A stretch of DNA of 63,114 nt, the filler included, from Craspedostauros australis (lineage: Eukaryota), in assembly GCA_030167865.1 (NCBI GenBank). It is 10 parts of 10 records of this genome, joined end to end, with 100 filler letters (N's around TTAATTAATTAA, not from the genome) between each part and the next. Parts side by side here need not be neighbours in the genome. Positions count along the whole stretch, not along the records: positions 48,653 to 55,616 come from JALAGF010004809.1; 9 more parts are not named here. One strand, given 5' to 3'. Below are positions 14,004-61,097 of the stretch, piece by piece. Made by a program: the position numbers and the translations under genes. Under the pieces are notes generated by a model. The model was not told where the DNA came from. It saw nothing but the letters and a program-made list of their open reading frames with translations, and made no database searches. Positions within the stretch are counted from its first letter, which is position 1; the number at the start of each line of letters is the position of its first letter.

Positions 14004-14215
14004 GTCTGTGGTCGGAGCTGCCTATGGAAGAGATATCGATGTTTGTGTATGCAACAGCTTGTATTAGTATGAGTATGAGTATGAGTATGAGTATGAGTAC
14101 CATACGCTGTGTGATGAATATGAGTGGCAATTCGATGTCTGTTGTTCACGCGGTTGAGTATGGGGTTGGGTGATGTGTGTGCTGTTGTCTTGTTCGCATG
14201 GTCTCCTCCTTCTGT
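14004..14215 (-). promoter_or_regulatory. Homolog of the 5' flank of the ankyrin gene at 54027; includes (GAGTAT)5 microsatellite
   Basis: Reverse complement aligns with 53740-53940, sharing AACAACAGACATCGAATTGCCACTCATATTCATC exactly. Confidence 0.7.
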
Positions 14216-18102: not shown

Positions 18103-18678
18103 TCGTCATGACCTCATGAAGGTTCGAACAGAGTATCAGGCTGGACGCTTTGCTGTGGCAACTCCCAGAGTAGATCATACTCATGGAAGGTTACATACTC
18201 ATAGTTGTACAACGGGTGGGTCAAGGTGCGGAGCAACTGGCGAGGCTTCCCACAGATCCTCTTGGATGTCGATGACTCATCATCTTGTCTGATTGTCTGA
18301 TTGTTTGTGCTTGTGTTGTTGGTGGTACCAATGTGAAGGGATGCGGCGTCATTGGAGTGGTTGCCATTGCCATCGTCATCGTCGAACAGAGTTGCGTTGC
18401 ACGAAGACAACGCATTGGTGATGTTCGTCGCGAGTGTGTGCGTGTGTCATTGGTTGAATGAACGACGGATGGCAGACAGACGAGTACTCGCCAAACGCGC
18501 CAACAATTCTTGATGTCACCCGAAACAACGAATCTCCGATTTTGCGCCACGATCCATCAAACAACATCAACACAACATCAACACAACATCAACACAAAAG
18601 AGAGAGAGAGAGAGAGATGAAGTGGCATGACTATGTTTGCATTGATGGAGGTATCAGCCAACACTGAGACGTTGTCCG

Positions 18679-20694: not shown

Positions 20695-20794
20695 NNNNNN
20701 NNNNNNNNNNNNNNNNNNNNNNNNNNNNNNNNNNNNNNTTAATTAATTAANNNNNNNNNNNNNNNNNNNNNNNNNNNNNNNNNNNNNNNNNNNN
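20695..20794. other. Artificial contig linker
   Basis: N44-TTAATTAATTAA-N44. Confidence 0.97.
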
Positions 20795-32469: not shown

Positions 32470-32569
32470 NNNNNNNNNNNNNNNNNNNNNNNNNNNNNNN
32501 NNNNNNNNNNNNNTTAATTAATTAANNNNNNNNNNNNNNNNNNNNNNNNNNNNNNNNNNNNNNNNNNNN
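32470..32569. other. Artificial contig linker
   Basis: N44-TTAATTAATTAA-N44. Confidence 0.97.
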
Positions 32570-38657: not shown

Positions 38658-38757
38658 NNNNNNNNNNNNNNNNNNNNNNNNNNNNNNNNNNNNNNNNNNN
38701 NTTAATTAATTAANNNNNNNNNNNNNNNNNNNNNNNNNNNNNNNNNNNNNNNNNNNN
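38658..38757. other. Artificial contig linker
   Basis: N44-TTAATTAATTAA-N44. Confidence 0.97.
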
Positions 38758-38924: not shown

Positions 38925-41900
38925 TTACCAACCCATGATCTTGAATCGCAGGTATTCGAAGACTGCGATGGACAATCCTTTGGTGAAGATGTCGGCCAGT
39001 TGCTCCGGTGTTGCGATGTGCTGGATGTAAATGAACCCTGCCTTGACCCAGTACCAAAAGAAGTGCCACTTAGTCAGGAAGTGCTTGGTGCGCGCGGTTG
39101 GTTGATGATTGGTAGCAAGGGAAATGCAGGCTTGGTTGTCCTCAAACACTGTGCACTGGAGGTTGGTGTGCAGCAGCATGTTAGTGCCGGCGTTGTTGAT
39201 GACTTGGCGGATGAGCTGTTGGATGGGAATCAGCGTGCGCATTGCCAGAGAGAGAGCGGCGTACTCGGACTCCATCGTAGATAGAGCAATCTCAGTTTGG
39301 AGTTTGGACTTCCAAATAAGGGGACACCCTCCCAATGTGATGAGGTAACCAGTGCGCGACTTGACGGAGACGGGGTCCTTGCTGTCTTCTCGTCCGTAGA
39401 GTCCTGCGAAGTCTGCATCCACGTAGCACTTGAGGTCAAGCTGCCCGGTGGGACGCACGATAGTACCCTTGTCCTCAGTGTGCTTGAGGTAGCGCATGAT
39501 GCGCTTGATGGCCTTGGCATGTGAGCGGCGAGGGTCGCTTCCGAAGCGAGCGACTTGGGAGACTGCGAATGCCAGGTCGGGGCGAGTGTTCGTCGTGAGA
39601 TACAACAGCATGCCGACGACGGAGCGGTAGTTCCATGGTTCGTTCATGGGAGGCTCATGCTTGCACTGTCCCAGTGCGAGCTGCGTAGTTGGTACGGGGC
39701 ACGGACTGCAGTTCGCCATTTTCGTAGTGGCGAGGATCTTCTTGATTAATCCTGGCTGGCGGAGATGGACCGTGTCTGCTTTTGGATCACGGCTGAGCTC
39801 GATTCCCAGGAACTCGTTAAAGCTTCCTTCTTGGGTGAGCTCGAAACCGAGGTCACGCATTGACTTGATGAAATTGTCGGCGGCTTGCTTGGTCTTGGAG
39901 GCGATGCCCGCATCGTCAACGTAGAGGACGATCATGATGTCCTTCTTGATGAACAAACACTGCTCTTGGTCGCAGGCCTTGAAGCCGATCGTAGTGAGGG
40001 CTCGGATAAGGTGTTCATACCAGAGGCGAGGAGCAATCGTCAAGCCGTACAGGCTCTTGCGGAGCTTGAGGCAGGTGTCGGGACCCTTCGTTGATTTGAA
40101 TCCGCGAGGGAGATGAAGGTAGACGGGCTTGTGGATGGATGCTTGCACGAAAGCGTTCGTGAAGTCAATGGAAGTTGTTGTCCAGCCCATGACGATGGAG
40201 GTGCTGAGGAAGATGCGAACGGATGACCATGCAACGACTGGTGCGTAGGTGGAGGCGTCCTCATGCATGAGGTCTCCACGGCAACACCAGCGTCCCTTGT
40301 ATTTCTTGATGGTTCCGTCGGGAAGGCGCTTGCGACGAAAGACCCAGGTTCCTGGAAAGATGCGATCGTTGACGACGTCGATCTTCTTCACTTCCTCCCA
40401 CGTGCCCTTTTCCGTGAGATCTCGAATCTCCTTTTCGGCGGCTTGCATCCACTCGTCCTTATTGTCGTCGCGAATGGCTTCGTCGAAGGAGAGGGTGTCT
40501 GGGTCGGTGTTGGATGCCTTGTACACCGAGGTGCGTTCGGTGATATCCAAGTCGCCACCTGCGGCGAAGTAGCTCATCATGCGATTATCGACGTAGGTGG
40601 GGTAGTTTGTTGCGTCCTTCTGTGGCTCGATGATTGCGACAGAGTAGGCATGCTGTTCGATGTTCGCCCATGTGGTTGGTGGAATACACTTCGCTGTGTC
40701 GAGGATGAATGACGGATTGATGTCGAGCGTGGATGACGAGTCGATGTCGAGCATGGATCCTTGATTAGCAGAGCGAGTCGCTGGGGCCGAAGTGAGTGGC
40801 GCCGTGTTCGACTCAATCATGCCTTGGACGAATTGCTCAATCTCATATTCGCTTGGACGTAGCCACGGTCCTGGTCGGATCGTCGTTACTTGGCGACGGA
40901 GTAGCTCGAATGCAAGTCGGTAGTGATGATTTTCGATCATCGCGTTCCACACGGAGCGAGTTCTTTGGACGAACGCTTCTGCGCTGTACGCAGATTTGGG
41001 TGGAAGGTACCCTTGGTTCATCAAGTGCTCGGGATCTTGGTAGTACCATGGCCCCGATTTGGCCTTGGACATGAAGTCGAGAGCGTCGAAGCGGGGTTCC
41101 ATCGTGCCTGTGCTGATGAAGGTACTCAGCTTCTCCACAAACTGCTCGACGGCGTGGTCAGTGGCCAGTCGGAGAAGGTCTTCGTTGAGAAAGACGCTGT
41201 TGAGGTCTTTCTCGAAGTGATCTTCCATGTCCGAGTGGAAGTTGTTGTACGTCTCCTGAAAAGGAGTCGCGCCTTCCTCGGTCATGTCGTCGGGGTCCGG
41301 TTGCCACCAATCGGCCATGTTGATGCTTGCTTCTTCTACTTCAGCCGCCTTTGGGGCGAACGTTGGAAGTACGACGTTGGTTGGCTGTGGATTCAAAGTG
41401 TTGAATCGACCTCGAAGTCTGCGCAACAAGTAGTGGGCGTCCACCTTAAATTGGTGTAGATCGATGGAGAGAGAGTCGCTGCCTTTGCGTTGGAGAGGTT
41501 CGATTGTGTGTAGGCAATCGACAACAGCTTGTGAGAATGTAATGATTGATGACGAGTCGGGGTGCAATTCCCTGGGTTTTGCGGCCTGTTCGATTTCTTC
41601 CAAGGTAGCTACTGCGGGGCAGAAGTAGTAATCATCGGTGCCTTCGTCGTCCAACCAGGCTGCTTTGCCTCCCATACGCGCGTACGTGAATCGCTTTGGT
41701 TGTTTGCGATTTCTCGTGCTTCGAAGCCTTGTTGGCGTTGGCTCAGACTTAGGCATCGTGGGTGGCGTGGAGCTGGTATCAATTTGCGTCGGAGTTGGAA
41801 GTGGTAATGGAGTTGCCGGTTCTGAAATTGGCGACTCTTGGAGAGGTGAACTCGATTGCGGTTGAAGTGTTCGCTGGTCCGATGATTCTATAGTAGGATC

Positions 41901-43994
41901 AGATACCGGGGACTCATAGGTAGCTCCCTCTGTCGAAGACATTTGCCTGTCGGCTCCCTCTGAGACTGGAATCGGAGGGGCGAGAGCTTCACTCATGAGA
42001 TCGGGTATCTGTTGCGTCGTTGGTTGCGACTCTTTCGCCAATACCTGTGGCGCTCTTTCACGGATGGTTTGTTGGTTTCGCGTATCAATTCTCGGTGGTT
42101 GAGTATTATCGTCGTTGCGTTGTAACCGGTTGTGGTCTCGCGTGTCTGATGCGAAGATGTCGTCCTGCTCCATTGATTCCACATCGTCGTCATCGAATGG
42201 ATATTGNNNNNNNNNNNNACCAAACATGCGAGTCCATTCTTCCGATTGATAGCTTGGAAGTTGCTTCAAGTCGGTAGCAATCGTTGCGAACCAGTCATCG
42301 AACACGACATGGAACTGAGGGGTAATGGAACCTGTCCGTGGTGATAGGACTAGAGGTACGGTTGAAGCGTGCTTTGTAGAGAGACCCATGTTCACGTATC
42401 TCTCTCCTCTTGGTTCCCATCGGGGTATCTTGCGTCCATCGGCCAGTGCTTTGTTAAGGACATAGACTGGACTGCCCCATACGTGCAGGTTATGAAGTTG
42501 CTTGAGGGGAAGGCGGATGCGTGACAGAACATCATAAGGTGTGAGGCCAGTGGCGGGATTAGGCACGCGATTATAGATGTACGCGGCGTGTACGACGGCC
42601 ATTGGCCACAGTTGAGCGTCAAACATCGTTGGCCAGTGNATGCTTTGATGCATCATCATGGTTCGGGCCATTGAGACAATNGTTCGAATGCTTNGCTCGG
42701 CGATTCCATTGTGGTGATGTGCGCCGACACCTGCGAATCGATGGACTTGATGGAATATCTCAAGGTGTTTGGAGTATTCGGGCGAGGTGAAGGTGGTGGC
42801 GTTATTGGATAGATATGATCGTACGGGGACTCCAACATCACGACACATCAATTCGAACCGTTCCTTGGCTTCGAGGGTGGCGTGCGTAGTTAGCGCTGCC
42901 ACAGGTTCCACATGGATGTATCCTGATGCGTGATCGACGAAGATGGCTCCGCCTTTGTACATTTCGTTTGGATCGCCTTTGCCTCGTCCTGAGAAGAGGC
43001 GTCCTGGNGTTCGACCGACGAAGTGGTCCACTGATACTTGTTGTCCTGGGAACAAGTGATCGGTGCGCAAAACTCCTTGTTTGTCACGGACGACATGTTG
43101 AGTTATTCCTGGGGATGGGCGACGGTGCAGCTTTCCGAACTGGCATGCGGCGCAGAGCGGAAGGCTTGTGACCCTTGCCGCAGCTGTGTGCATCTTTCTA
43201 GATGATTCTGACCCAGTGAGCGTACCCGAACGCAGCAGGAACTTCACTCGACTGAAGGATAAGTGTCCGAGACGATAGTGCCACCGAAGAAGTTCTTTTT
43301 GCGGTTGAGTGAGGTTCACGTTGTGGTCGGACACGGTAGAGACGATGGACGTTAGTGCAGCTGGCACGTCATGGATGTTGTCGGCGCTGTAGCCCACTGA
43401 TGTTGGTAGCCTTGTGGATTTCTTGTAGTTCGCTACGATTGCATTGCGATCGTCGTTTCCCAGGATTCCGCTGAGTTTGCAGGAGGATTTGTCGAACACG
43501 ATTGTTTCGCCCTGGTACTCTTCAAGGAGACTGGAAGTGCTGATTAGCTTGACCTTTGATTCGGGAACATGGAAAGCAGGCAGTCGCAATTTGCGAGGGC
43601 TTCCAGTTACATCAAGGACATACCACTCGACAGTGCCCAACGCATTCACTTGGATTTTCTTGAGGAATCCGTTGAGAAAGGTCGGTCGTGGTGGAGGACT
43701 TGGAGTAGAACAGAAATTGTTGAGGTCATTTGTCACAGAAATTGATGCTCCGCTGTCCCATACAAGCTCAAATGGAGCATCGGGTGAGAGATAACTCTCA
43801 GCTTTAGCTGGAGATGCGAAAGCATTGCGATTGGAGAAGTAGGAAGCTAGACCTTGCAGAGTGAGTAGTGCTGGCATGTCATTGTCACATTGTTGCTTTT
43901 GATTTCGATCATACATCAAGTCAATTCCGCGAGTCGGGTACAGGCTCCAGAGATTTCGTGAGATGGATGAGGTGCGACCTTCTTGGCGGGGCAA
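38925..43994 (-). CDS. Ty1/Copia (CoDi-type) pol: protease, integrase, RT, RNase H; gag lost at contig end
   Basis: VWDSGAS; WHYRLGH..CAAC; VSVDH..HHNGIAE; WVFRRKR..KGRWCCRGD..DFTNAF..LYVDD; YVDADFAG..STMESEY..EDN..ADIFTKGL. Confidence 0.95.
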   Translation of the reverse strand: MPRQEGRTSSISRNLWSLYPTRGIDLMYDRNQKQQCDNDMPALLTLQGLASYFSNRNAFASPAKAESYLSPDAPFELVWDSGASISVTNDLNNFCSTPSPPPRPTFLNGFLKKIQVNALGTVEWYVLDVTGSPRKLRLPAFHVPESKVKLISTSSLLEEYQGETIVFDKSSCKLSGILGNDDRNAIVANYKKSTRLPTSVGYSADNIHDVPAALTSIVSTVSDHNVNLTQPQKELLRWHYRLGHLSFSRVKFLLRSGTLTGSESSRKMHTAAARVTSLPLCAACQFGKLHRRPSPGITQHVVRDKQGVLRTDHLFPGQQVSVDHFVGRXPGRLFSGRGKGDPNEMYKGGAIFVDHASGYIHVEPVAALTTHATLEAKERFELMCRDVGVPVRSYLSNNATTFTSPEYSKHLEIFHQVHRFAGVGAHHHNGIAEXSIRXIVSMARTMMMHQSXHWPTMFDAQLWPMAVVHAAYIYNRVPNPATGLTPYDVLSRIRLPLKQLHNLHVWGSPVYVLNKALADGRKIPRWEPRGERYVNMGLSTKHASTVPLVLSPRTGSITPQFHVVFDDWFATIATDLKQLPSYQSEEWTRMFGXXXXQYPFDDDDVESMEQDDIFASDTRDHNRLQRNDDNTQPPRIDTRNQQTIRERAPQVLAKESQPTTQQIPDLMSEALAPPIPVSEGADRQMSSTEGATYESPVSDPTIESSDQRTLQPQSSSPLQESPISEPATPLPLPTPTQIDTSSTPPTMPKSEPTPTRLRSTRNRKQPKRFTYARMGGKAAWLDDEGTDDYYFCPAVATLEEIEQAAKPRELHPDSSSIITFSQAVVDCLHTIEPLQRKGSDSLSIDLHQFKVDAHYLLRRLRGRFNTLNPQPTNVVLPTFAPKAAEVEEASINMADWWQPDPDDMTEEGATPFQETYNNFHSDMEDHFEKDLNSVFLNEDLLRLATDHAVEQFVEKLSTFISTGTMEPRFDALDFMSKAKSGPWYYQDPEHLMNQGYLPPKSAYSAEAFVQRTRSVWNAMIENHHYRLAFELLRRQVTTIRPGPWLRPSEYEIEQFVQGMIESNTAPLTSAPATRSANQGSMLDIDSSSTLDINPSFILDTAKCIPPTTWANIEQHAYSVAIIEPQKDATNYPTYVDNRMMSYFAAGGDLDITERTSVYKASNTDPDTLSFDEAIRDDNKDEWMQAAEKEIRDLTEKGTWEEVKKIDVVNDRIFPGTWVFRRKRLPDGTIKKYKGRWCCRGDLMHEDASTYAPVVAWSSVRIFLSTSIVMGWTTTSIDFTNAFVQASIHKPVYLHLPRGFKSTKGPDTCLKLRKSLYGLTIAPRLWYEHLIRALTTIGFKACDQEQCLFIKKDIMIVLYVDDAGIASKTKQAADNFIKSMRDLGFELTQEGSFNEFLGIELSRDPKADTVHLRQPGLIKKILATTKMANCSPCPVPTTQLALGQCKHEPPMNEPWNYRSVVGMLLYLTTNTRPDLAFAVSQVARFGSDPRRSHAKAIKRIMRYLKHTEDKGTIVRPTGQLDLKCYVDADFAGLYGREDSKDPVSVKSRTGYLITLGGCPLIWKSKLQTEIALSTMESEYAALSLAMRTLIPIQQLIRQVINNAGTNMLLHTNLQCTVFEDNQACISLATNHQPTARTKHFLTKWHFFWYWVKAGFIYIQHIATPEQLADIFTKGLSIAVFEYLRFKIMGW

Positions 43995-44045: not shown

Positions 44046-44145
44046 NNNNNNNNNNNNNNNNNNNNNNNNNNNNNNNNNNNNNNNNNNNNTTAATTAATTA
44101 ANNNNNNNNNNNNNNNNNNNNNNNNNNNNNNNNNNNNNNNNNNNN
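44046..44145. other. Artificial contig linker
   Basis: N44-TTAATTAATTAA-N44. Confidence 0.97.
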
Positions 44146-47100
44146 TCGGGCAGGATGCGTGTGCCACAGGCGGAGGTGATGTCCGACAACCAAAGCGCTC
44201 TGAGGTGTATGCGGGCGACGTTAGCCAGACCTAGCGTTGTCGTAGGGACTCCTGCTTGAATGGCTAGGTGCATGATTGTCTCGTCACCGCGGCGCGGTTG
44301 GCGGGCAGCACTACTTTGGTCTGTCATGACGATGCCGAGCTGTGAGGCGGTGTGGAAGGTGTTTTGCCACCACGTTGCAGCCGTCCAGGTCTTCCATTTA
44401 CTTTCATGCTGTTGCAGCTGCCCTGGTAGTCCGGTCCACAGTTCGAGGTGTCGAAGTGAGGAGCGTAGCAGCCGGCCTGTTTCTGTGTCTTGTTCGAAGT
44501 GTTGCATCACCATGGAAAGGTGGGAGATGACTTGCACTGTGTGCAGATTGTGCACCCCCATGCCCATGGCGTCGACGTGGCCGAAGACATACTCCCTGGC
44601 GATTGTCCGGGCGATACCCATGGACGGAAGAGCTGCGGTCAGGGCGGTGCTCATCACTGTGCGCCACTGGGCTGGAGACATGGTGGTGGCAGGAGCGGAG
44701 TAGGTCAACGACGGCCACAGCACAGACTTGAGGGCGATTTCCGTGTCCTGTTTGCTGATCCGGGACGTTCTGATGCGTTCCGCCCACTCCCTCGATTTGT
44801 TGAGGAGGTAGCTGGCGTGCTCTGTTTGCTTGCCGTCTCTTCGAGACATCATCCCCAGGTATTTGGCTGCGGTTCGAGGGCCCGTCAGTGCCAACTGGAT
44901 GCGCTGGCCGTCTGGGGAGTTCATGTGGACTCCGGTGGTGGGAGTAGATAGGTCATAGGTCCATTGTGTTCTGTGCCACTTGAATCGGATCAGCTGCCAG
45001 AAGCTCTTTGTCGGTTCTAGAGCTCCGCCCGTGGCAGTGAGTAGATTGTCCCAATGATCGACTGACGCTTGGAAGGCTGTGGCCTGCGCATTGGGAGTGT
45101 CTGCTTGCAGGCTCTGCATCACGTTGGTGTCGTCGACGTAGGCTGTCCCTGTGATGACGTGGCCGGCGTTAGTGATGGGATCGGGGAGGCTGAGTCCGTG
45201 CCCGCGGCGGCGCATGCTGTCGATGATGGCTGAACTGATCAGCAACCAGCCTGTTGGCGCGGATCCCAACCCCTGGACTAAACCTTGGAGGAATTGGCCT
45301 CGCTGCTTGCCTGAGTACAAAGCAGTCGACGTGCCTGCAGCGGTGCGTATGCGGTGAGTCATTGCCTGCAAAGTGCGCAGGGTGCTCTCGATGGGCGCTG
45401 CCGGCACTCCCTGTCGTCGTAGGGCCAAGCCGAATATGGGGTGGGCGATTCGATCGTAGCATCCCTTCGCATCGTTGGAGCAGACTGCGTAGTGGAGGCC
45501 GGTGACTCGGCCTACATTGTCGATGAGGGTGGTATTGAGTAGGACTTCTTGGGCCGTGTGGGCCTTCCGGCTTCCATATTGTTCAGCGGCGATGGTCCCG
45601 TTGCTCTCCGCGTGCGATCTGGCCTGTTTGCCGAGAAGGCGATTGTTCATGTTGAAGTCGCCTTCCATGAGTCCAATCGTCCTTGTTTTGGTGACTGCGA
45701 GATTGCCCGGTTTCTTCCTCAGCTGTATGTCGGTGCACTGTTGCCATCGCTGGAGGCTGTAGCCCGTGCGGTAAGGGATCTCACGCAGTATGGCGTCGAT
45801 GAGAGCAAGCTCTGGCACCTTCGCGTTGGCCTTCCAACACCCAAAGTGGATTCCAGACGGCCCGGAAGACGTGCTCTCTTTGATGCGTGACCATCCTTCG
45901 GAGTGGCTTTCATGGGTGATGGTCGTGTTCAGCCGGGGCCATGGGCTTGCCTGTGGGGGTTGGTGCAGAGCTTGGAGCACTTTGTTGGTGCTGGCACTGA
46001 TCTGCGATGGGACGATGCCGTGTAGGATGGCTGTGGCCGCCGTGCTGGTGCCGAATCGGCCAAGGCTGCGCTTCAATGGTCGCTGGCAGACCTCAGCTCG
46101 CCAGGCCTGGCTGTATTTGTCGATGTTGTTGTTACAGCATGCTCTGGCCACATCTTCTCCGGATGTGAGGAGATTCCCTTGCCCTCCTGGTCCGTCATCA
46201 ATAACGATGGACACTTGGGAGTCCTCGCCGTTCGCCTTAAGTGCCCAGCCGATGCGCCTGTAGGCCGCTCGCGTGTCTTCTCTTTGCTGGATTTGGGCTC
46301 TGTATTTCACAGTATCCTTGCCTGTTCTGGAGACTTCAGCTTCGTCGTCTGCGAGGAAAGTCCTCCAGTGGTTAGCGGCGTCTTGCTTCGCTTGTCGGTA
46401 ACGGCGCCATGCATCGTTTCTGCGTCTACCCATCTCTGTCAGGGTTATATGCCGGGTGAGTGCTGAGAGCTGTGCCTTTTCCCTGGCTTTGTCGACGGTG
46501 CGCCCTTTGATGTTGTGCCCTTTCCTACGCTTTATGCTGAGGGTCCAAAACCTGTGCTCCCAGTGTATTTTCGACAGTGCTGGCGAGAATGGGACTGCAC
46601 CTGCGCGTACTCGGCGGCAGTGGCGTTCAGCGTGTAGTATGGCCTGGGTTCGGTCTTTGTCGATGGCTTCGAGTTCGCGAATTTGCTTTGTTGTGATGGG
46701 ACCTTCTCCGATGTCTGAGTTGAGTGCTTCCGCGCGTGCTCGTAGCCGTTTGTTGCTGGCCTGCTTGGTGTACTCGTCTGTATACCTGCGCACTGTCGCT
46801 GGTTGGTTGAGTTGTAGCCTCCGTCCTCTGAATGGCGTGGTGGGTTGTTTGGAGGGTCCGAGTAGGCTAGCTGCGACGATGTCCATCCACACCGCTCTGT
46901 GGTCCCAGCCGCTGTAGGCTGTGAGGCCGAGCTGAGATGGGCGTATGTCACTCGTGGTCCATATTCCGTCGATTGGGATTCCTCTGGTGTTCCTGATCAT
47001 CGTGGCGTATGGGTGGTTGATCTGGTTGGAATGGTGTTCATGCATGCCTTCGGACTGGAGCATTGTCAATATTTTGGACCTTCTGATGTCCATGTTCACA

Positions 47101-47789
47101 TCACCCCCTACGATGATTGTTTCTCCTGCTTGCTTCCAGAGCGATATCTGGGTCTGCAGGTCGTGAATGAGCAGGTCTATCGGCTCCAGGTTGGATCCTC
47201 GTTGAGCTGCCTTGATTGCTTGTTGATTGTAGACTGTCCCGGTGGTTTGTGTTGACTTCGTGGGAACGTAGATGGACACCACTCGGACTTTGATGCCCTG
47301 CTTGCCTTGCAGCAGCATGCTTGCCCATCGCCCGCTTTGGTTGGGGTCGTTGCTGCGTGACAACACTCTGCCGGCGGCGTTGCCGTGGATGAGTACTGCC
47401 GTGCCGCCCCACTGACGAGGATTGCGGGCTGTGGTCCGGTAGTGTGATGTGCTGGTTTTCACCATGCGCAGGTGCCGCTCCGCTCGGTGTGCAAGTGTGG
47501 TATCTGTGGGAACTTGGTTCCAGTTGAGTCCGACCTCCGTGATGAGTAGTATGTCGATGTGGTGTTGGCGTGTGAACTGCCATAGGTCGTCGTTTTTGGG
47601 TTCCGTGGGGTCCGGTGGTAAGCTTCCGATGTTGAGGGTCGCTATCCTGATGTGGCCTTTTGGTTTGGGTTGGGTGGTTTGCCCTATGTGTTGTTGTTGA
47701 GAAGTTGATCCGTCCGGTCTCAATTCCTCTTGGTTGTCGGGTCCGTTGTTGTTCGAGCTGGACTGTGCCCGTTGGTGGCTGACTATCAT
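44146..47789 (-). CDS. Second Ambal-like LINE ORF2 (APE + RT; 3' part beyond contig end)
   Basis: ATLNI..TEVGLNW..GGDVN..IDGIW..DHRA; SNDAKGCYDRI..GLVQG..YVDD; collinear with, but divergent from, 1129-6564. Confidence 0.92.
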
Positions 47790-48552: not shown

Positions 48553-48652
48553 NNNNNNNNNNNNNNNNNNNNNNNNNNNNNNNNNNNNNNNNNNNNTTAA
48601 TTAATTAANNNNNNNNNNNNNNNNNNNNNNNNNNNNNNNNNNNNNNNNNNNN
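48553..48652. other. Artificial contig linker
   Basis: N44-TTAATTAATTAA-N44. Confidence 0.97.
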
Positions 48653-48653
48653 T

Positions 48654-49446
48654 GTGACCGTCGTCGTCACCTATCGCCGTGTCTTCGACTGGATGCTCAG
48701 CAGCATCAAGCAGGATCACTCCCGCAAAATCGACAAAGCGTTTGCGATAAGCCAATGGTCTGCCGACGGCGGAAAGGCTCAAGAACGGACCTGGCCCATC
48801 ATTTGCGGCTGGGTCCGCCAGAGCTTGCCTCTTGCGCGCGATCCCAACAGGCGCAAAATGGTCACAGGGACGTACGTCTTCATGGATGGTTCCATACATC
48901 TCTGGAATTCAGGCGGCTTTGCAACGCACATCCTCAACATGCATTCCCAACGCCACATCACGCAGCAGCTGATTTGTGATTTCATCCATGATGCGCCCCA
49001 TTCCTGTCGGTATCTGCAGGAGAAAAAAGACAACCCACCAAGGAACGTTCGCAACATGCTGTGGTACAAGCACAATGACATTGTCTTCTCAGCCGCGGAG
49101 CGAGGCGTGATTCCCAAAAACAAGCAAGCCCACCAATCAAGGATAAGCATTGCGAATCTACTGGCACGCTACCATGGTCACACATGCAACAAGATGATGG
49201 CAGATCTGCCATTGGTTTGCCCTTCCGACGATCAGCTGGAGCACTTTCTCAACATGTCGCTGAGTATAGAACGCCGATTGATGCCTGATTGGTACGCTTC
49301 TCCAGGGCGAATCGCTGCATCGATCAGCATTTCAACACACCGCGTATCGCAAACGCGAGTTTTGCGAAGTGGACTTGGACCGACTCTTTCAGAATGTCAC
49401 ATCCTGGAATGGTCTGTTGCGAAACCTCAATCGGACTTGGGATTGA
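48654..49446 (+). pseudogene. C-terminal part of a diatom hypothetical protein (possibly sulfotransferase-like), probable frameshift ~49308
   Basis: VVVTYRRVFDWMLS..ILNMH..LPLVCPS; plausible C-terminus HRSAF..FCEVDLDRLF..SW lies in another frame. Confidence 0.45.
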
Positions 49447-50017
49447 GGAGAGGCTGCAGAATCCTGCAATTATCATCCGCGTGCAACGTCGCAACCAGCA
49501 ATGATGGGCTTCTGCGCTGTTGTGGGTTCCGACATGCCATTGCATGTCAATAGAGTAGAGTACATACCCATGCATTGTAAATGAATCAATTTGATGAACA
49601 AGGAAATGAGTTTCGTCGATCATATGGTACAGTACAGTGTTAGGATCTACGGAAGGTACCATGCTGTCGAGAGTAAACACTCTGTTTTATTTGCAGAGAT
49701 AATAGGTTGGAAATGAGATGGCTTTCCTTTTCGAAATCACGAGATTACTGGTACAGTCGTGTGTAGATACTCCACGGTCTCGACTCGAACTCGTAGACTT
49801 CATCTCATTGTATGTACATACGGACAGACTATTGCAGTGTCGGACACCGATGTGAACTCGGGATTGTCGCACGACTGAGAACATAATGGAATTCGATCGA
49901 AGAACACATCGAGAATTCCTCCGAAAATCGATCAATCATGGCACGACTCGTCCGAGAAACACAAACCTCCTCACAAAATGCAACAACAAGCCACAAGCAA
50001 CAACGAAGGACACGACA

Positions 50018-50410
50018 ATGATATTCTCACTTTCACCATTCGATACCTACGATGGCGAGCACGAGCCGTACTTTCGCCGCAGTCAGCCGCAACACTATAC
50101 GACTATGAACGCCGATGAGATGTACAATCGGAGACACTCGTCCGCTGCTGCTCGCAGAGAATCGCAACGACGGGCGGAGATCGAACACTACTACCAACAC
50201 AAGCAAATGGAAGAGATGCAGGAAGCCATGCGGCAGCGCCGCCGCCGCCAGGAATATGAGCACTTTGGTCTGCGTCAGCAAAGATACTTCTGTCATCCCT
50301 CATTGGCATCATGCCAATCAACCCCGAAGATCTGCTTCGGCGGGGACGAACGAGCCAATGTGACCTATTCGAACCCACAATCACAACACCGACACGGCCG
50401 TGCCGGATGA
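50018..50410 (+). CDS. Small hypothetical protein, Arg/Gln/Glu-rich helix
   Basis: MIFSLSPFD.. after an A/C-rich leader; no recognisable domain. Confidence 0.35.
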   Translation: MIFSLSPFDTYDGEHEPYFRRSQPQHYTTMNADEMYNRRHSSAAARRESQRRAEIEHYYQHKQMEEMQEAMRQRRRRQEYEHFGLRQQRYFCHPSLASCQSTPKICFGGDERANVTYSNPQSQHRHGRAG

Positions 50411-50533
50411 CAGCATGAGCCATCGCTCTCGATCTTCAATTCCCAACCTGTTACCTCCAAAGATCAACAACAACATCCATGGGAGGAGTGAAGAAGGATC
50501 AAGCGCCACAGCGGACTTGTATTCGAACCAACG

Positions 50534-51444
50534 ATGATGCGAATAGCATTGCTCTCTCTTCTGGCCATCGCGGCTTGGATCGATGTACGTGATGGGCTTC
50601 ACCTTGGTACGCATCAGACAACTCCACTTCCGTCATCGTTCTCACCATCGTCGGTACAGCGTCCATCATCACCACGAGTGTCGCAGCCATCGCCAGCATC
50701 ATCGGAGAACAGCAGAAGATCTTTCTTGCAGCGCACACCAGCTGCTATCGCATCATGCATTGCCAGCACCGTGCTGATATCATCGCCATCGCCTTCCTGT
50801 GCCATAACCGCGCCTGTGGATACGACATCGCGTATGGTGGATGTTGGCGGCGGCTTCGATCTGCGATCCGGCAAGCAGCTCAAGACGATCGACGCAGTAT
50901 TTCCAAGATCGATGGAAGGAACATGGAATTGCGAACGGTTGGTCGTGTCATCGGGGGAGATGGTTTCCAAGCCGAATCAGCGTGGAAGGCACTTGACGGA
51001 GGAAGTAGAAATAATGGCAAGCTCAAGACGCCCGAACAGTACCAAGTCAAGTTCATCCTATCCGCACAAATCGGCGACGTCGAAGGTGTTGTGATGGATC
51101 GGGCATTCGAGATACAATCTCGGGCAGGCGCGACCAAGATCTTCTAGGATGTGGATTCCCCAAATGTGTTGTGTTACGATGGGAGGATGATCACTGCCGT
51201 GCAAAGATCTGTGGAGCTTCCAAGCGACAAGGGGTTTGGTTCCGCCGAGCTGTTTCTGATTGAGGAAGGTCTGTTCGAACGCGCCGCGCAAGTCAAACGC
51301 AGATTCCGAAGGGGATAGGATGATGGCGGCAATCGAATTGTGGAAGGCTTGGAGATCATGAAGACGTACCGTGGTTTGGATGGTGTTGCTGGGACGGAGA
51401 TGCCGACATCCACAACCAAGTCGATGATCCGATTGACTCGGTAA
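50534..51444 (+). pseudogene. Plastid/thylakoid-targeted conserved protein (DUF6816-like), disrupted
   Basis: Signal peptide, Ser-rich transit, RRSFL; FPRSMEGTWNCER, frameshift ~50949, DRAFEI, TAG ~51145, QVKRRFRR, TAG ~51316, EGLEIMKTY..PTSTTKS. Confidence 0.65.
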
Positions 51445-51700
51445 TCGCCATGATCAGTGGAGAGACAGCGTAAAACAATAGCAATTTCGAAGGAATCTTC
51501 CTCACGCTGTAAGCATTTTCGTTGCACTCTACATCTGTCAAGCTCTCGCAACTACTCTCTGGAGCTCCCTATGAATGGAAATACTCTGCATCGTCGCTGC
51601 CGCACTTGTAGGTATGGCAGAAAAATGGAACAGAATACCTTCGTCACACGAGTAAATCGAATTTCAATCAAGAATGGCACCACATGGAGAGATACGTAAG

Positions 51701-53400
51701 CTATCGCAGCGCCTCGGTTATGACATTGCGATTCGGCGCACCCCACACATCTTCTACCTTCAGATCGCCGCTGCCGCTTGCTTCCTTCGTGTGCGCTCCG
51801 ATGCTGGCCAACGACAGAGCGAAGACGGCACTTTGGCCGCCCGTGATAGCTTCTTCCGGAAATTGGACCCCGGCCTGCACGTGACCGGCGAGGACTGCGC
51901 AGCAAAACGCGACCACACATTCACCGACGCAGGGTTCCAGATTCTCGTGCGCGTAGAGGGCCGTAGCTCGGATGGATGAATCTGAATCGCACGTGACGTC
52001 GCATCGCATCGCATGGCGTTGGTGGCGCCGGCAAAATAATCGACGACGCGGACGATCGGCAGCGAGAAGATTGCGAGCTTGGTCATGATCTGTTCGTTGG
52101 CAAGCAAGGATGATGGNAGCTGCGCCATGGCGCCGAGCAACGTGTTCCAGAATCCTGGTGCGGTTCCGAACAATGACTTGACGCTGCCGACTCCCAGAAC
52201 GTCATGGCTGTTGATTCGTATGGTTTGGTTTGGTATGGTTTCATGTCGTGTCGTGTGCATGATTGGTTGGCAGTATTTCGAGAAGGAACATTCCAAGAAT
52301 TTGCAGCGAAGCAGCGCAGAAGTCAGAGGATGAGTGTATCATTGTGATGTGGCTGGATGTAATGCTTGCGAACCTGGGTAATTGATCAGTACAAAGGATC
52401 AGTCAGGATTGGGCAACGAGGAGCAGCATGAAAGGGAGATACGACAGTCTCCACAATTCTCTTCATCCACCTCATCTCCCCCCGAATAGAACCATGCCGA
52501 TCACTCACACGGACGCGCTCTCCAATAGATTCAAAGGGGCGATCGGCTTGTCCCCCACGATGGAACCGAAATTGACCGTCTCGTAGTCCTTCATCGCCGC
52601 GACTGGAATGCGGCGACCCTTGACGACCATCAACGCTTCTTCCGCCAGAATGAGGAACGTTGCCACGAGCAGGGTTGCTCCGGCACCGCCTGATCCCGCC
52701 GTGAAGAACCCGAAATCGACACTGAGATCGGCTGGCTTGAGGTTCTTGTTTTGCTGCAGGACTTGCCGCACGAGCTGCTTGGCCATGAGACTGGAAACGC
52801 CTGGCCAGCATCCGGTGCTGATGATGCAAGGGACGTTGGATTCGATGGCCTTGGCATTGTACTTCGCCTTGGCGGCAGATTATGTGCAGTAGTCATCGCA
52901 GACGTCGATGTAAGCAACGCTGTTGGACACGCAGGCCGCGATGACACCGTTGGGTGTCTTGACCTTGCCTTGGAAGCGACCGGCCGTGTGGACTCACATA
53001 TCGTAGCTGCCCCGCTGCAGCACCGATGCGACGGATTGCTCCTCCTCGCGGTCCAGAGCCTGGAATTGCACATCGTCTACCAGCAGGTTGGGGAAGCTGG
53101 TGTGCCAGCGTTGCTGCGCCGCGAGGAAGGGATCGATGCTGGTGCCACCCACGGTGACCACCGATCCTCGCTTCAGCAGCTGCGTCACGACGCTTCCGCC
53201 CACACGTCCCGATCCACCGACCACCAGGACATTCTTTCCATCCAGAACATCAAATGAGATCTCTGTCTTGGCTACCACGTGCAACGAAGGAAGTCTCCGG
53301 GCGGCGCAAGCACCAGCATCCCCATGAGTCTCATGACCTACTATCGAAGCTGACGAAGGTCATGAAGGCAATGAAGGAACAAACGCAATGCTTGTTGACA
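51701..53400 (-). pseudogene. Saccharopine dehydrogenase-like oxidoreductase with intron 52208-52508, disrupted
   Basis: VLVVGGSGRVG; stop at 52994; HTAG..YIDVCDD; frameshift; GCWPGVS..FTAGSGGAG; GTGAGT..CAG intron restores ESASV-HDVLG; 5-bp GCGAT duplication frameshift ~52005. Confidence 0.85.
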
Positions 53401-54026
53401 GACAGCATGCGAACGCATAGCATGCGACGAGGCAATGCGATCTGATCATCGTCGAGCAAGGGAGTCGTATGATGTTTACTCTCGAGAAGAGTACGTATTG
53501 TGTTTGGGTATTGTGGGTCGAAGTTTGTGCAATGTGTGTTGCTGTCTTCTCGAGGGGAAACTGAGCGAACGCAGATGGCGAACATTTCTGAGTCAAGGAT
53601 ACGCACACATGCGACAAAGTGGAGTCGCGAATCCCTCCTCACACTCGCACGACTCGTTTGAGTGACGGGACCTGAAGATCATTCGATACACCCACAGCAA
53701 CACAAGGTCGTACGGCGACTTGTGCACAAAGAGAGAGACGAAGAGAGGACCATGCGACCAAGACTACAAGACTACAAGACAACAACACACACCATTCACT
53801 CCCATACTCGAGCACATCAACAACAGACATCGAATTGCCACTCATATTCATCGCACAGTGCATGGTACTCATCCTAACACTAATGCAAGCTATTGAAGAC
53901 ACACCATCGATATCTCTGCCATAGGTAGCTCAGACTACGTGCTTCCTCAACAGCCAATTCAACGTCAATCATCCAACGTCCAACGTCAATCGTCAAGCAA
54001 CCATCGACCATCGACCATCCTCTCAA

Positions 54027-55394
54027 ATGGCGAATGTTTCGAAGTATGAACTCTTTGTTGCTGCCTGGGAAGGTAACTTGTCGGTGTTGAAGGAATGGAA
54101 GAAGCAGAACAAGACGCAAGATGAAGAAGTTGATGTCAACAAGGTTACATACTGCAAAGGTTGGACTCCCCTTCATTGGGCATGTCAGAACGGCATGCTG
54201 GAGTGTGTGAAGTACCTCATCGAATCATGTGAGGCGAACATCAACTGCGAAGACAACTATGGTTGGACTCCCCTTCATCATGCATGCACGAGCAACCAGC
54301 TGGAGTGTATCGAGTATCTCATCAAATCATGTGAGGCGAACATCAACTGCAAAGACAACAATGGAAACACTCCCCTCTATGAGGCATGCATTAACAGCCA
54401 CCTGGAGTGTATCGAGTATCTCATCAAATCATGCGGGGCGAACATCAACTGCCACAACAACTATGGTTCCACTCCCCTTCATGATGCATGCGACCGTGGC
54501 AAGCTGGAGTGTGTGAAGTACCTCATCGAATCATGCGGGGCGAACACCAACTGCAAAGACAACAATGGTGACACTCCCTTTCATAAGGCATGCATCAAAG
54601 GCCACCTGGAGTGTGTGGAGTGCCTCATCAAATCAGGTGGGGCGAGCATCAACTGCGAAGACCACGATGGTGAAACTGCCCTTCATAAGGCATGCTACTG
54701 GGGCGAGCTGGAGTGTGTGAAGTACCTCATCAAATCATGTGAGGTGAACATCAACTGCAAAGACAACGATGGTGAAACTCCCCTTCATAAGGCATGCTTC
54801 AACGGCCACCTGGAGTGTATCGAGCACCTCATCAAATCATGTGGGGCGAACGTCAACTGCAACAACAACAACTCTAGTGCCACTCCCCTTCATCACGCAT
54901 GCCACAACGGCCACCTGGAGTGTGTGAAGTACCTCATCGAATCATGTGGGGCGAACATCAACTGCAAAGACAGCTTTGGTTCCACTATCCTTCATGGGGC
55001 ATGCTACAACAGCGACCTGGAATGTATCGAGTACCTCATCAAATCAGATGGGGTGAACATCAACTGCAACAACAACAATGGTGACACTCCCCTTCGTTGG
55101 GCATGCCGCCACGGCGAGCTGGAGAGTATCGAGTCCCTCATTAGAGGACTTTCGCCTTCAGCTCATCCACACCTACAACAACGCTCACAACAGAATGAGC
55201 CAGAGAAGGAACAGCTGCAACAACAGTTGGGGCAGCAGTTGAACCTGAAGGAACAGAAGGAACAAGCAAATGAACAACCACAACAACAGTTGAGACAGCA
55301 GTTGAAGCGAAAGAGGCAAGAGAATGAACACAAGCACAGCAGCCACAAGAGGACCAACATCAGCATTGGAGAAGACCGACTCAAGTCCTTCTAA
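54027..55394 (+). CDS. Ankyrin-repeat protein (10 tandem 102-bp units) plus short coiled coil; BTB disconnected
   Basis: TPLH-type units start at 54165, 54267, 54369, 54471, 54573, 54675, 54777, 54882, 54984, 55086; paralog of 18679-20694. Confidence 0.9.
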   Translation: MANVSKYELFVAAWEGNLSVLKEWKKQNKTQDEEVDVNKVTYCKGWTPLHWACQNGMLECVKYLIESCEANINCEDNYGWTPLHHACTSNQLECIEYLIKSCEANINCKDNNGNTPLYEACINSHLECIEYLIKSCGANINCHNNYGSTPLHDACDRGKLECVKYLIESCGANTNCKDNNGDTPFHKACIKGHLECVECLIKSGGASINCEDHDGETALHKACYWGELECVKYLIKSCEVNINCKDNDGETPLHKACFNGHLECIEHLIKSCGANVNCNNNNSSATPLHHACHNGHLECVKYLIESCGANINCKDSFGSTILHGACYNSDLECIEYLIKSDGVNINCNNNNGDTPLRWACRHGELESIESLIRGLSPSAHPHLQQRSQQNEPEKEQLQQQLGQQLNLKEQKEQANEQPQQQLRQQLKRKRQENEHKHSSHKRTNISIGEDRLKSF

Positions 55395-55616
55395 CTGGGA
55401 ACAGGACAGATTCCGTCTTCTTGTGTGGACAGGACGACGAACAGTAACCAATCAAGGCAAACTCCGAAGTCCTAATGATCACCCTCCCATCCATTGAGAT
55501 ACTGATCGACATAGGAATCCAACACCAGCACGCGAATGATGGCACAGAAGACTACGCGGCCCCCATGCAAGCAACCGTCTCTCTTCCCAACCTTCAACCA
55601 AAACACGTCCAACATA
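55395..55616 (+). pseudogene. Out-of-frame BTB remnant of the ankyrin gene
   Basis: DSVFLCGQDDEQ*PIKANSEVL..LPNLQPKHV aligns with the paralog BTB (about 43/66 identical by manual count). Confidence 0.85.
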
Positions 55617-55716
55617 NNNNNNNNNNNNNNNNNNNNNNNNNNNNNNNNNNNNNNNNNNNNTTAATTAATTAANNNNNNNNNNNNNNNNNNNNNNNNNNNN
55701 NNNNNNNNNNNNNNNN
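55617..55716. other. Artificial contig linker
   Basis: N44-TTAATTAATTAA-N44. Confidence 0.97.
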
Positions 55717-56680
55717 ATTGTTAACACATTCCAACTACAGGAGGATGGCACAAGTCCCATGAAATGGCTGACTTGTGGGGGAGGAGGGGGAACAACACCA
55801 ACTGTGATACTCACACATCCACGTGCTCACACACACACACACACACACTGCCATACCGTACAACCAGCCACAACACACAACAACACGTGAGACCGTGATG
55901 CAACAGTCAACACACAATGAACTATCTGTCAACACCAAATGAACTATCTGTCAACACCATTCCAACTACNNNNNNNNNNNNNNNNNNNNNNNNNNNNNNN
56001 NNNNNNNNNNNNNNNNNNNNNNNNNNNNNNNNNNNNNNNNNNNNNNNNNNNNNNNNNNNNNNNNNNNNNNNNNNNNNNNNNNNNNNNNNNNNNNNNNNNN
56101 NNNNNNNNNNNNNNNNNNNNNCAACACCATCAACTGTGATACTCACACATCCACATGCTCACACACACACACACACTGCCACACCGTACAACCAGCCACA
56201 ACACACAACAACACGTGAAACCACAATGCAACAGGCAACATCAAATGAACTATCTGTCAACACCATTCCAACTACTGGAGGATGGCACAAGTCCCATGAA
56301 ATGGCTGACTTGTGGGGGAGGAGGGGGAACAACACCATCAACTGTGATACTCACACATCCACGTGCTCACACACACACACACACTGCCACACCGTACAAC
56401 CAGCCACAACACACAACAACACGTGCGACCGCGATGCAACAGTCAACATCAAATGAACTATTGTTAATATCATTCCAACTACTGGAGGATGGCACAAGTC
56501 CCATGAAATGGCTGACTTGTGGGGGAGGAGGGGGAANNNNNNNNNNNNNNNNNNNGGAGGATGGCACAAGTCCCATGAAATGGCTGACTTGTGGGGGAGG
56601 AGGGGGAAGTCAACACCATCAACTGTGATACTCACACATCCATTTGCTCACACACACACACAAACTGCCACACCACAACA
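55717..56680. repeat. Tandem repeat, ~207-bp unit with internal (CA)n
   Basis: GGAGGATGGCACAAGTCCCATGAAATGGCTGACTTGTGGGGGAGGAGGGGGAA at 55740, 56277, 56484, 56556; gaps hide true copy number. Confidence 0.9.
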
Positions 56681-58122: not shown

Positions 58123-58222
58123 NNNNNNNNNNNNNNNNNNNNNNNNNNNNNNNNNNNNNNNNNNNNTTAATTAATTAANNNNNNNNNNNNNNNNNNNNNN
58201 NNNNNNNNNNNNNNNNNNNNNN
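58123..58222. other. Artificial contig linker
   Basis: N44-TTAATTAATTAA-N44. Confidence 0.97.
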
Positions 58223-60997: not shown

Positions 60998-61097
60998 NNN
61001 NNNNNNNNNNNNNNNNNNNNNNNNNNNNNNNNNNNNNNNNNTTAATTAATTAANNNNNNNNNNNNNNNNNNNNNNNNNNNNNNNNNNNNNNNNNNNN
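60998..61097. other. Artificial contig linker
   Basis: N44-TTAATTAATTAA-N44. Confidence 0.97.

Follow-up and report, generated by a model that had tools for sequence, protein, structure and literature searches.

The window (the whole stretch of DNA analysed, 63,114 nucleotides of Craspedostauros australis, filler included) carries an open reading frame (ORF) dominated by ten ankyrin (ANK) units and followed by the out-of-frame start of a BTB domain, together with a second ANK locus on another contig piece. The features are as follows.

54027-55394, plus strand: ORF of 455 codons, comprising an N-cap, ten ankyrin units, a Q/E/K-rich linker and a TAA stop
54027-54146, plus strand: N-terminal capping helices (MANVSKYELFVAAWEGNLSVLKEWKKQN...)
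54147-55169, plus strand: ten ankyrin units of 34 aa (102 nt) each
55170-55391, plus strand: Q/E/K-rich linker, a short counterpart of the paralog's long E/K/Q tandem-repeat linker
55392-55394, plus strand: TAA stop, where relatives have His
55395-55616, plus strand: BTB-start remnant (..DSVFLCGQDDEQ*PIKANSEVL..LPNLQPKHV) read in the -1 frame and truncated where the contig stops
55617-55716, no strand: contig joint, N44 - TTAATTAATTAA - N44; the window has nine linkers of this kind
18682-20694, minus strand: paralog on another contig piece, with 2.8 ankyrin units, linker, BTB, BACK-like region and tail

The window is stitched together from at least ten contigs, and the two ANK loci, both of which adjoin contig ends, therefore need not be neighbours. 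The array-bearing gene lies on a short unplaced contig. In the surrounding window, many ORFs of copia-type and endonuclease-bearing retroelements were observed.

Units 1-7 of the array start at 54147, 54249, 54351, 54453, 54555, 54657 and 54759, and units 8-10 at 54864 (preceded by one extra codon, 54861-54863), 54966 and 55068; the last (55068-55169) is a degenerate C-cap. An N-cap like that of the ORF is also present in relatives P0121, P0126, P0127, P0135, P0271 and P0272. Tandem Repeats Finder reports a period of 102 with 9.5 copies, 79% matches and a score of 1032 over 54165-55141. Pfam (PF00023, PF12796 and PF13637; ankyrin cut-offs 21-27 bits) assigns to the ORF Ank_4 at E = 3.8e-100 (326 bits) and Ank at E = 2.4e-95 (307 bits, nine stretches); by these thresholds the ORF encodes an ankyrin repeat protein. 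The ten 102-bp units with a shared framework described in the initial annotation are thus confirmed by repeat detection, translation and Pfam, and the beta-turn and first-helix strings listed there all occur as written in the translation. A 306-bp super-period, also proposed by Tandem Repeats Finder, was discarded, as identity shows no increase at lag 3. An AF2 model of the ORF (pLDDT 69) contains a helix pair in each unit, and the best sequence match of the array among solved structures is the DARPin 6mol_A (E = 5.7e-102). Compared as a whole with proteins of 250-797 aa, the ORF retrieved generic ankyrin proteins only, with a best identity of 47% among the 120 matches listed of 1378.

The framework LECxxYLIxSCxANINC is kept in units 1-9 with few exceptions. 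A 32-nt framework pattern, allowing at most three mismatches, matched nine times in the array and twice in the second locus, compared with no match in 100 shuffles, and gave no match in the metagenome scans. Among units 1-9, 52 of the 102 nucleotide columns are invariant; identity between units is 79% at the DNA level and averages 62% (maximum 76%) at the amino acid level. Each of the three Leu columns has its own fixed codon (CTT, CTG and CTC), and the Cys codons are fixed as TGC in column 13, TGT in column 20 and TGC in column 34. Because the synonymous codon that is fixed differs by column, codon bias was ruled out as the source of the identical framework codons, which are most probably alike through descent.

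The columns of highest entropy within the array are 6, 14, 4, 11, 15, 17 and 1, and the eight most variable columns among 16 units from four genes are 14, 4, 11, 6, 15, 17, 1 and 3. Eight replacement-rich columns take in all six that differ between DARPin repeats: in a HMMER alignment, columns 1, 3, 4, 6, 14 and 15 correspond to positions varying among the repeats of 6mol_A itself, and we take these to be the positions randomised by design in DARPins. Column entropies and the 6mol_A alignment therefore agree with the earlier proposal that variation is concentrated in the beta-turn and first helix.

Replacement at these sites exceeds silent change by several measures. The minimum number of changes among units 1-9 is 58 nonsynonymous versus 8 synonymous. 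On the six DARPin columns chosen a priori, 27 nonsynonymous changes over 15.5 sites compare with 8 synonymous changes over 20.2 sites (binomial p = 5e-5), and in a permutation the pN of these columns was equalled by 7 of 20000 random six-column sets. The tree-free NG86 method gave a borderline whole-unit omega of 1.62 (bootstrap CI 0.91-3.30) and a ratio of 5.0 for six-column dN over pooled dS. Under the GY+F1X4 model in IQ-TREE, omega among units was 2.58 overall (likelihood-ratio test versus 1, p = 0.0013), 11.0 for the six a-priori columns (p = 0.009) and 1.85 for the remaining 28 (p = 0.07); for the framework columns (26-28 of them) omega is near 1, being 1.03 in one estimate and 1.85 (n.s.) in the other. 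The dN/dS check suggested in the initial annotation thus yields the expected nonsynonymous excess in the binomial, permutation and IQ-TREE results. The codon models fit a single tree, though the units probably recombine, and the data set, at 10 units × 34 codons, is a small one; insofar as such models apply, the codons of the predicted concave binding face appear to be under positive selection.

The paralog provides the domain context. Its ankyrin units lack their 5′ end at the contig joint and are followed by an E/K/Q tandem-repeat linker of ~170 aa, a BTB domain (PF00651, 27 bits versus a cut-off of 20.5), a helical BACK-like region (BACK_BPM_SPOP, 13.7 bits, under the cut-off of 27.4) and, last, a hydrophobic tail that is not conserved. 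Searching with a BTB-region profile yielded 13 representatives at E <= 1e-30. Of 20 relatives scanned with Pfam, 18 possess BTB; eight combine ANK with BTB, and eight carry MATH with BTB and/or BACK (BTB in seven, BACK only in P0138). One family relative, P0122, bears the name C. australis. The nearest matches of the profile outside the family are MATH-BTB-BACK_BPM_SPOP proteins (E = 1e-12 to 1e-38). It spans BTB and BACK_BPM_SPOP of P0142, P0139 and P0144 (E = 1e-13 to 1e-18), and P0142, which matches profile positions 18-230 across both domains, reaches 34.5 bits for BACK_BPM_SPOP versus the cut-off of 27.4. Since the closest outside BTB-BACK relatives are MATH-BTB proteins of the SPOP/BPM type, the ankyrin array appears to occupy the place of the MATH domain. 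Remoter family members contain 3-7 units that have diverged (internal identity 40-51%), which suggests that the ten-unit array is a recent expansion.

Other searches with the BTB-BACK region were less informative. Among solved structures the profile had no match at E <= 0.01, KBTBD2 alone appearing at the BTB/BACK junction with E = 0.8; an AF2 model from a three-sequence alignment (pLDDT 42.7) was too poor to use; and of 70 matches to profile-derived peptide patterns in metagenomes, none was confirmed by tblastn. The nearest cluster in the ESM Atlas, of BTB / SAP / BACK_BPM_SPOP type and most often from Bacillariophyta (score 0.90), is a lead only.

We consider it probable, at roughly 60%, that the array serves target recognition in one member of a family with the order ANK-linker-BTB-BACK, in which a single scaffold has acquired many surfaces by selection. 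The copy described here is a damaged member of that family. The segment from 'DR' to 'FLCG' measures 38 nt, versus 39 in relatives, and the frame is therefore shifted there by 1 nt. The remnant shares 80% DNA identity with the BTB of the paralog and contains a second TAA at 55445-55447. In public run X1 no variant letter is recorded for the two TAAs, and both stops are therefore probably real. An intron spanning the two stops was ruled out, as its excision would lose the conserved FLCGQ strand. An intact in-frame BTB (PF00651) was not found in this copy, which is a young pseudogene or else a derivative with ANK only. The initial annotation had placed the array in a BTB family linked to ubiquitination; BTB is indeed present in the paralog (PF00651) and in the relatives, but with the BTB part of this copy out of frame and twice interrupted, coupling to ubiquitination would hold for the family and not demonstrably for this gene.

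The same lesions raise the possibility that the whole family is decaying, a dead ANK-BTB copy having spread passively (e.g. alongside neighbouring repeats or transposons), so that past selection followed by relaxed constraint would leave no working repertoire. Besides the two stops, the frameshift and the uniform X1 letters, this explanation could draw on the short unplaced contig, the retroelement-rich window and the framework omega near 1. However, neutral decay predicts an even omega of ~1, rather than values of 5-11 on six predefined columns alongside 52 of 102 invariant ones. In addition, the 1365 nt before the first stop are free of lesions whereas the 223 nt after it hold two, a suggestive contrast albeit one of small counts, and peptides derived from a transcriptome include close relatives that share the framework. 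On this evidence we regard general decay as unlikely; were the family to consist of decaying duplicates, it would still be a clear instance of a repeat array evolving with dN in excess of dS.

The transcriptome-derived peptides in question, P0271 and P0272 of C. australis, share the framework (LECVKYLIESCEANINC and LECIKYLIKSCGADINC), and their presence supports the transcription of some family member that the earlier proposal called for. Their variable-column residues differ from those of the array at equal array positions, as exemplified by the unit 1 surface in three genes (KGW..W..QNGM, RIGL..K..FGGR and WFGR..E..IHGQ); the surfaces are therefore not conserved between family members. No library recorded as RNA contains the locus: X1, the sole matching run, is typed 'RNA? 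(a guess)'; nothing in X2 or X3 matched. The family looks large, since 698 of the 30610 X1 contigs match 1.9 kb at >=90% identity (123, 228 and 347 by identity class, the 123 being >=99% identical). From 54084 onwards, 22 of the 24 bins on the gene have a summed X1 depth of 300-16000 (the other two, 14 and 177), versus 7-43 upstream of it; the step at ~53956 could mark either the start of a transcript or the edge of a duplication. Four listed X1 letter differences within the array, in columns 17, 17, 29 and 17, alter three codons, all nonsynonymously.

With so many similar copies, the array could be an assembly chimera, built from reads of many near-identical members and unreal in the order and number of its units. 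Misassembly of a multicopy family is conceivable because the window was stitched from many contigs, with 39 N runs and nine linkers carrying stops in all six frames over 63 kb, and the position of both ANK loci at contig ends points the same way. Among the hundreds of similar X1 contigs, some join non-adjacent units in register (the register of the repeat is kept at 7/7 joints whose inserted letters are known), which could reflect paralogs, alleles or contig chimeras. Against this, X1 pieces cross the unit 5/6 junction (54548-54681) and 55136-55309 with 0 differences, and 123 contigs match at >=99% identity. A chimera is therefore quite improbable, and even then it would be composed of real family units, such that the per-column result stands.

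Exchange between units bears on a further explanation. Among 16 units, the framework haplotype V-K-E occurs in 7/16, I-E-K in 5/16 and mixed forms in 4/16; two linked haplotypes accompanied by mixed ones suggest unit-to-unit exchange, and paralog units are as close to array units (81-82% DNA identity) as the latter are to one another (79%). Concerted evolution is an accepted cause of internally conserved repeats, according to Dyrka et al. (2014, PMC4986451). An ordinary scaffold protein, with old surfaces for one fixed partner and no ongoing diversification, might thus mimic positive selection if gene conversion homogenised the framework and lowered dS, but we find this very doubtful, because the variable-column residues differ among paralogs and C. 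australis peptides at equal array positions, and the diverged units of remoter members mark the ten-unit array as a recent expansion.

Under the preferred reading of the array as a target-recognition domain, units would have multiplied and been exchanged recently in this lineage, which would account for framework codons identical by descent. Subsequent selection may favour differing residues in the beta-hairpin and first helix of each unit and each paralog, and the outcome would be a set of binders sharing one scaffold with many surfaces. Full-length members would presumably dimerise via BTB, dock on Cullin-3 and present a ligand held in the ankyrin groove for ubiquitination. Fast turnover of specificity, in turn, may point to changing targets, e.g. 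proteins of pathogens or selfish elements; near-identical repeats that differ almost only at target-contact residues are typical of fast-evolving recognition proteins.

To our knowledge, very little is known of how diatoms recognise pathogens or non-self, and the best matches of a full-text literature search included no family of this kind in diatoms. A multicopy family with a fixed scaffold and a selected surface, tied to an SPOP-like BTB-BACK, is a concrete and testable candidate for a diatom recognition system, and the array family offers natural Cys-rich DARPin-like scaffolds. A bolder proposal, which we hold to be rather unlikely as a whole, is that raphid diatoms of the Craspedostauros type maintain a germline library of Cullin-3 adaptors of independent origin, with surfaces renewed by shuffling and selection, for the intracellular recognition and degradation of viral, bacterial, oomycete and selfish-element proteins, and with truncated ANK-only copies as decoys or regulators. 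Such a library would act like the repeat repertoires of fungal NLRs and the MATH-BTB families of nematodes.

Several known systems share parts of this arrangement. The array resembles DARPins in its variable columns but is natural, with a unit of 34 residues in which helix 2 is followed by one additional residue, four cysteines in each unit (AC, EC, SC and NC), variable columns 11 and 17 that are fixed in DARPins, and fusion to BTB in the family. Ankyrin and BTB also occur in one protein in S. pombe Btb1-3p, which bind the Cul3 homologue Pcu3p (PMC1257465), and in animal ABTB/BTBD11; compared by description, these have two ankyrin repeats with tandem BTBs or other layouts, and they are not known to be hypervariable.

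The likeness to fungal NLRs of the HET-E/NWD type, put forward in the initial annotation, is partial. Both have repeats of 33-34 aa with a conserved framework and few hypervariable, positively selected codons on the concave face of inner helix and beta-hairpin, and both show signs that units, and paralogs too, have exchanged sequence. Highly internally conserved fungal repeats are defined by >=85% identity over >=100 aa (Dyrka et al. 2014, PMC4986451), whereas the array units, at 62% (maximum 76%), lie under this value. The likeness therefore extends to the conserved framework with selected sites but not to the degree of identity or to a NOD: Pfam found no NACHT or NB-ARC in the ORF, the paralog or the relatives, which contain ankyrin only or ANK and BTB. 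The partner domain in the family is BTB-BACK, rather than HET or another death effector, and the host is a stramenopile alga.

MATH-BTB proteins (SPOP/BPM/MEL-26) provide the other parallel. Their order of recognition domain, BTB and BACK-like helices (Stogios et al. 2005, PMC1257465) is matched in the family by an N-terminal recognition domain, BTB and a helical BACK-like region. Positive selection in the substrate-binding domain and lineage-specific expansion (Thomas 2006, as summarised in PMC4334554), with expanded sets in nematodes and grasses, likewise resemble the selected recognition domain and expanded family described here. The family differs in that its recognition domain is an ankyrin solenoid instead of MATH, its diversity arises inside a tandem array of near-identical units, and its Cullin-3 binding is presumed, with a BTB that is not intact in this copy. 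Overall, the ANK-BTB family would represent a third independent case of a conserved scaffold with a hypervariable face, after the fungal NLR repeats and the MATH-BTB proteins of nematodes and grasses.

The repeat array lies within one long open reading frame (ORF), and like units occur at a second ankyrin (ANK) locus, the paralog:

54027–55394, + strand: ORF of 455 codons (the main gene) enclosing the whole repeat array
Main-gene ORF, + strand, parts in translation: N-terminal cap, then ten 34-residue ankyrin units, then a Q/E/K-rich tail
18682–20694, − strand: paralog, on a separate contig piece, with 2.8 like units, a ~170-aa E/K/Q tandem-repeat linker, a BTB domain and a helical region

Tandem Repeats Finder (TRF) detected one array, at 54165–55141 (period 102, 9.5 copies, 79% matches, score 1032). 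In the translated ORF, unit 8 is preceded by one extra codon, and unit 10 is degenerate and acts as a C-cap. Pfam ankyrin models match the ORF at E = 1e-95 to 1e-100, and a 32-nt framework pattern has nine matches in the array and two in the second locus, versus none in 100 shuffles. The array is as the initial annotation described it, and every string quoted there occurs in the translated ORF. There are four cysteines per unit (AC, EC, SC, NC; 54147–55067) and ~37 in the ORF, a content unusual for an ankyrin protein presumed cytosolic; the AC cysteine is common to the wider family, and EC and NC are confined to the main-gene subfamily and C. australis peptides.

The units share one framework. 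Framework columns (columns being residue positions 1–34 of the unit) use one codon each in nearly all units, the Leu columns being fixed on CTT, CTG and CTC, respectively, and the Cys columns on TGC, TGT and TGC. Because the fixed synonymous codon differs from one column to another, this sameness reflects identity by descent, and codon bias is ruled out as its source. Across units 1–9, 52 of the 102 nucleotide columns are invariant, and between-unit identity averages 79% for DNA but only 62% for amino acids, the reverse of the outcome of purifying selection.

The initial annotation had placed the variation at the contact positions randomised in designed ankyrin repeat proteins (DARPins), and had called for a measure of excess nonsynonymous change there; both the concentration and the excess were found. 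The best solved-structure match is the DARPin 6mol_A (E = 5.7e-102), and in the HMMER alignment columns 1, 3, 4, 6, 14 and 15 coincide with positions that differ between its own repeats. These six columns, which we take to be the designed randomised DARPin positions, formed the a priori class for selection tests. Units 1–9 require at least 58 nonsynonymous and 8 synonymous changes; the six columns account for 27 nonsynonymous changes over 15.5 sites, against 8 synonymous changes over the 20.2 synonymous sites of the complete unit (binomial p = 5e-5). By the Nei–Gojobori method, whole-unit omega is 1.62 (bootstrap interval 0.91–3.30), the ratio of six-column dN to pooled dS is 5.0, and the six-column pN was equalled or exceeded by 7 of 20000 random six-column sets. 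IQ-TREE (GY+F1X4), applied to nine array units plus one full paralog unit, gave omega = 2.58 overall (likelihood-ratio test against omega = 1, p = 0.0013), 11.0 at the six columns (p = 0.009) and 1.85 at the remaining 28 (p = 0.07); these values come from a small data set, modelled by column class on one assumed tree, although the units probably recombine. When 16 units from four genes were pooled, the eight columns of highest entropy were 14, 4, 11, 6, 15, 17, 1 and 3, that is, all six a priori columns plus 11 and 17, which are fixed in DARPins and also highly variable in the array. Helical periodicity would put column 11 on the helix 1 face that carries columns 14 and 15. The ankyrin solenoid is one scaffold with selected diversity at its canonical binding face.

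The framework itself occurs as two linked haplotypes, V-K-E (7/16 units) and I-E-K (5/16), with mixed forms in 4/16, a pattern that fits exchange between units. The public sequencing run X1 contains 30% of the sampled words, and 698 of its 30610 contigs match a 1.9-kb stretch at ≥90% identity (123 at 99% or more, 228 at 95–99%, 347 at 90–95%). Within the array, the four listed letter differences affect columns 17, 17, 29 and 17 and alter three codons, each of them nonsynonymously. All seven X1 joints with known inserted letters keep the repeat register (net lengths 102, 513, 615, 714, 717, 717 and 819); their flanks match different array units, with a new variable segment between. Contigs and joints suggest that the pool of such units is large, with chimeric contigs as a possible alternative source. 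Across the array, the linker and the remnant of the BTB, summed depth is 300–16000 in 22 of the 24 bins from 54084 on (14 and 177 in the other two), and it is 7–43 upstream of ~53956; the high values may stem from copy number or from expression. Depth rises to >700 some 70 nt before the ATG (53956–54026). A loose X1 end at 54012 runs into a different start (ATG CAG AGT GTT ACA AAC...), which means that paralogs have the final ~15 nt ahead of the start codon in common (to 54012) and then diverge.

A short-protein search returned two Craspedostauros peptides labelled MMETSP1442, P0271 (138 aa) and P0272 (114 aa), at 63–64% identity. Both have the main gene's N-cap, and their frameworks, LECVKYLIESCEANINC and LECIKYLIKSCGADINC / LKCIEYLIKSCGANINC, are identical to its own; their variable-column residues are unlike those at equal positions of the main array. 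MMETSP peptide sets derive from transcriptomes and, if these two do, C. australis transcribes members of the subfamily.

The array gene belongs to a family of ANK-BTB-BACK proteins, which are related to MATH-BTB adaptors. The paralog's BTB matches PF00651 (27 bits; cut-off 20.5), and a word-based search with this region found two proteins of 50–52% identity and paralog-like architecture, one of them named Craspedostauros australis. A profile of these three BTB regions had 398 matches at E ≤ 1e-3 among 1.84 billion representatives, 13 of them at E ≤ 1e-30. Pfam was run on 20 of the best 24 matches, omitting P0143 and the fragments P0133, P0137 and P0140. Eight were ANK+BTB, four BTB and/or BACK only, and eight MATH with BTB and/or BACK; seven of the MATH proteins carry BTB (P0138 has BACK only) and several BACK_BPM_SPOP. 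From this composition, the family's BTB-BACK is closest to SPOP/BPM-type Cullin-3 adaptors, in which the substrate-binding MATH domain holds the place occupied here by the ankyrin array; Stogios et al. (2005, PMC1257465) likewise put the partner domain of MATH-BTB proteins N-terminal of BTB. Since more distant ANK-BTB relatives have 3–7 units (counted with a simple motif, to which some may be lost) of 40–51% internal identity, the ten-unit array is a derived expansion.

The paralog's ANK-BTB linker (19912–20297, − strand; TRF periods 33–105 nt) is missing in the relatives P0121 and P0122, and the main gene has a short version; the paralog's resembles a spacer, either a coiled coil or a single alpha-helix, that has itself expanded. 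The paralog ORF also continues ~110 residues past the relatives' ends (18682–19010, − strand) as a hydrophobic, Ser/Ala-rich tail (LPWLLVLLLALRL...); possible explanations are a membrane anchor, an overlooked intron and translation running on into non-coding DNA.

The proposed coupling of the array to BTB holds for the family but not demonstrably for the main gene. After the first stop the −1 frame reads ..DSVFLCGQDDEQ*PIKANSEVL..LPNLQPKHV, the BTB start of the paralog and relatives, from which the main gene differs at three points:

55392, + strand: first stop, TAA; His at the same place in paralog and relatives
Between 'DR' and 'FLCG', + strand: 1-nt frameshift; 38 nt here, 39 nt in paralog and relatives
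55445–55447, + strand: second stop, TAA; CAA in paralog

The two stops and the frameshift leave the main gene without an in-frame BTB. Neither TAA has another letter listed in X1. Roughly half of the depth at 55392 (190.6 of 404.8, three contigs) shows one A more, an insertion that restores the frame and keeps the stop. The 1365 nt before the first stop hold no lesion and the 223 nt after it two more, the contig ending at 55616; this distribution hints that the ANK-only ORF is still selectively maintained, on counts too small to settle it.

Other elements of the window are as follows:

13904–14003, 20695–20794, 32470–32569, 38658–38757, 44046–44145, 48553–48652, 55617–55716, 58123–58222, 60998–61097: nine identical joints (44 N, TTAATTAATTAA, 44 N)
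1129–6564, − strand: long retroelement ORF
9757–13845, − strand: long retroelement ORF
38925–43916, − strand: long retroelement ORF
44094–47789, − strand: long retroelement ORF

The joints are six-frame stop linkers; the window thus strings together at least ten separate contigs, and adjacency across a joint carries no meaning. The array lies on the piece 48653–55616 and the paralog on the piece 14004–20694, so their closeness in the window is no evidence for or against linkage. Each ANK locus is interrupted at a contig end, as expected of a multicopy family. The retroelement ORFs sit on pieces other than the array's: two have an N-terminal endonuclease/exonuclease/phosphatase domain (non-LTR type), a third combines gag of the copia type with a zinc knuckle and pol domains, and the fourth looks by eye like a copia-type polyprotein. 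Just behind a joint, 55717–56660 is a satellite-like block in which a ~250-nt unit containing GGAGGATGGCACAAGTCCCATGAAATGGCTGACTTGTGGGGGAGGAGGGGGAA and a (CA)n run recurs three or more times between N gaps.

In family members with BTB, this domain would dimerise and dock onto Cullin-3, and targets bound by the ankyrin face would be presented for ubiquitination, those targets presumably changing rapidly. The defence or non-self role raised in the initial annotation is speculative. No description of such an ANK-BTB family in diatoms was found in the openly available full texts searched, subscription journals and closed supplements aside.

The suggested likeness to HET-E-type NLRs is partial. According to Dyrka et al. 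(2014, PMC4986451), ANK, TPR and WD repeats of fungal NLRs are strongly conserved internally and have sites under positive selection on the concave face, and the array resembles them in its conserved framework and selected binding-face sites. Its family has no NOD domain and its internal identity of 62% is below the 85% criterion of that study, which places the array gene outside the NLR class. In its working mode the family is also like the MATH-BTB or F-box adaptors of nematodes and plants, in which positive selection is confined to the substrate-binding domain (Thomas 2006, as summarised in PMC4334554).
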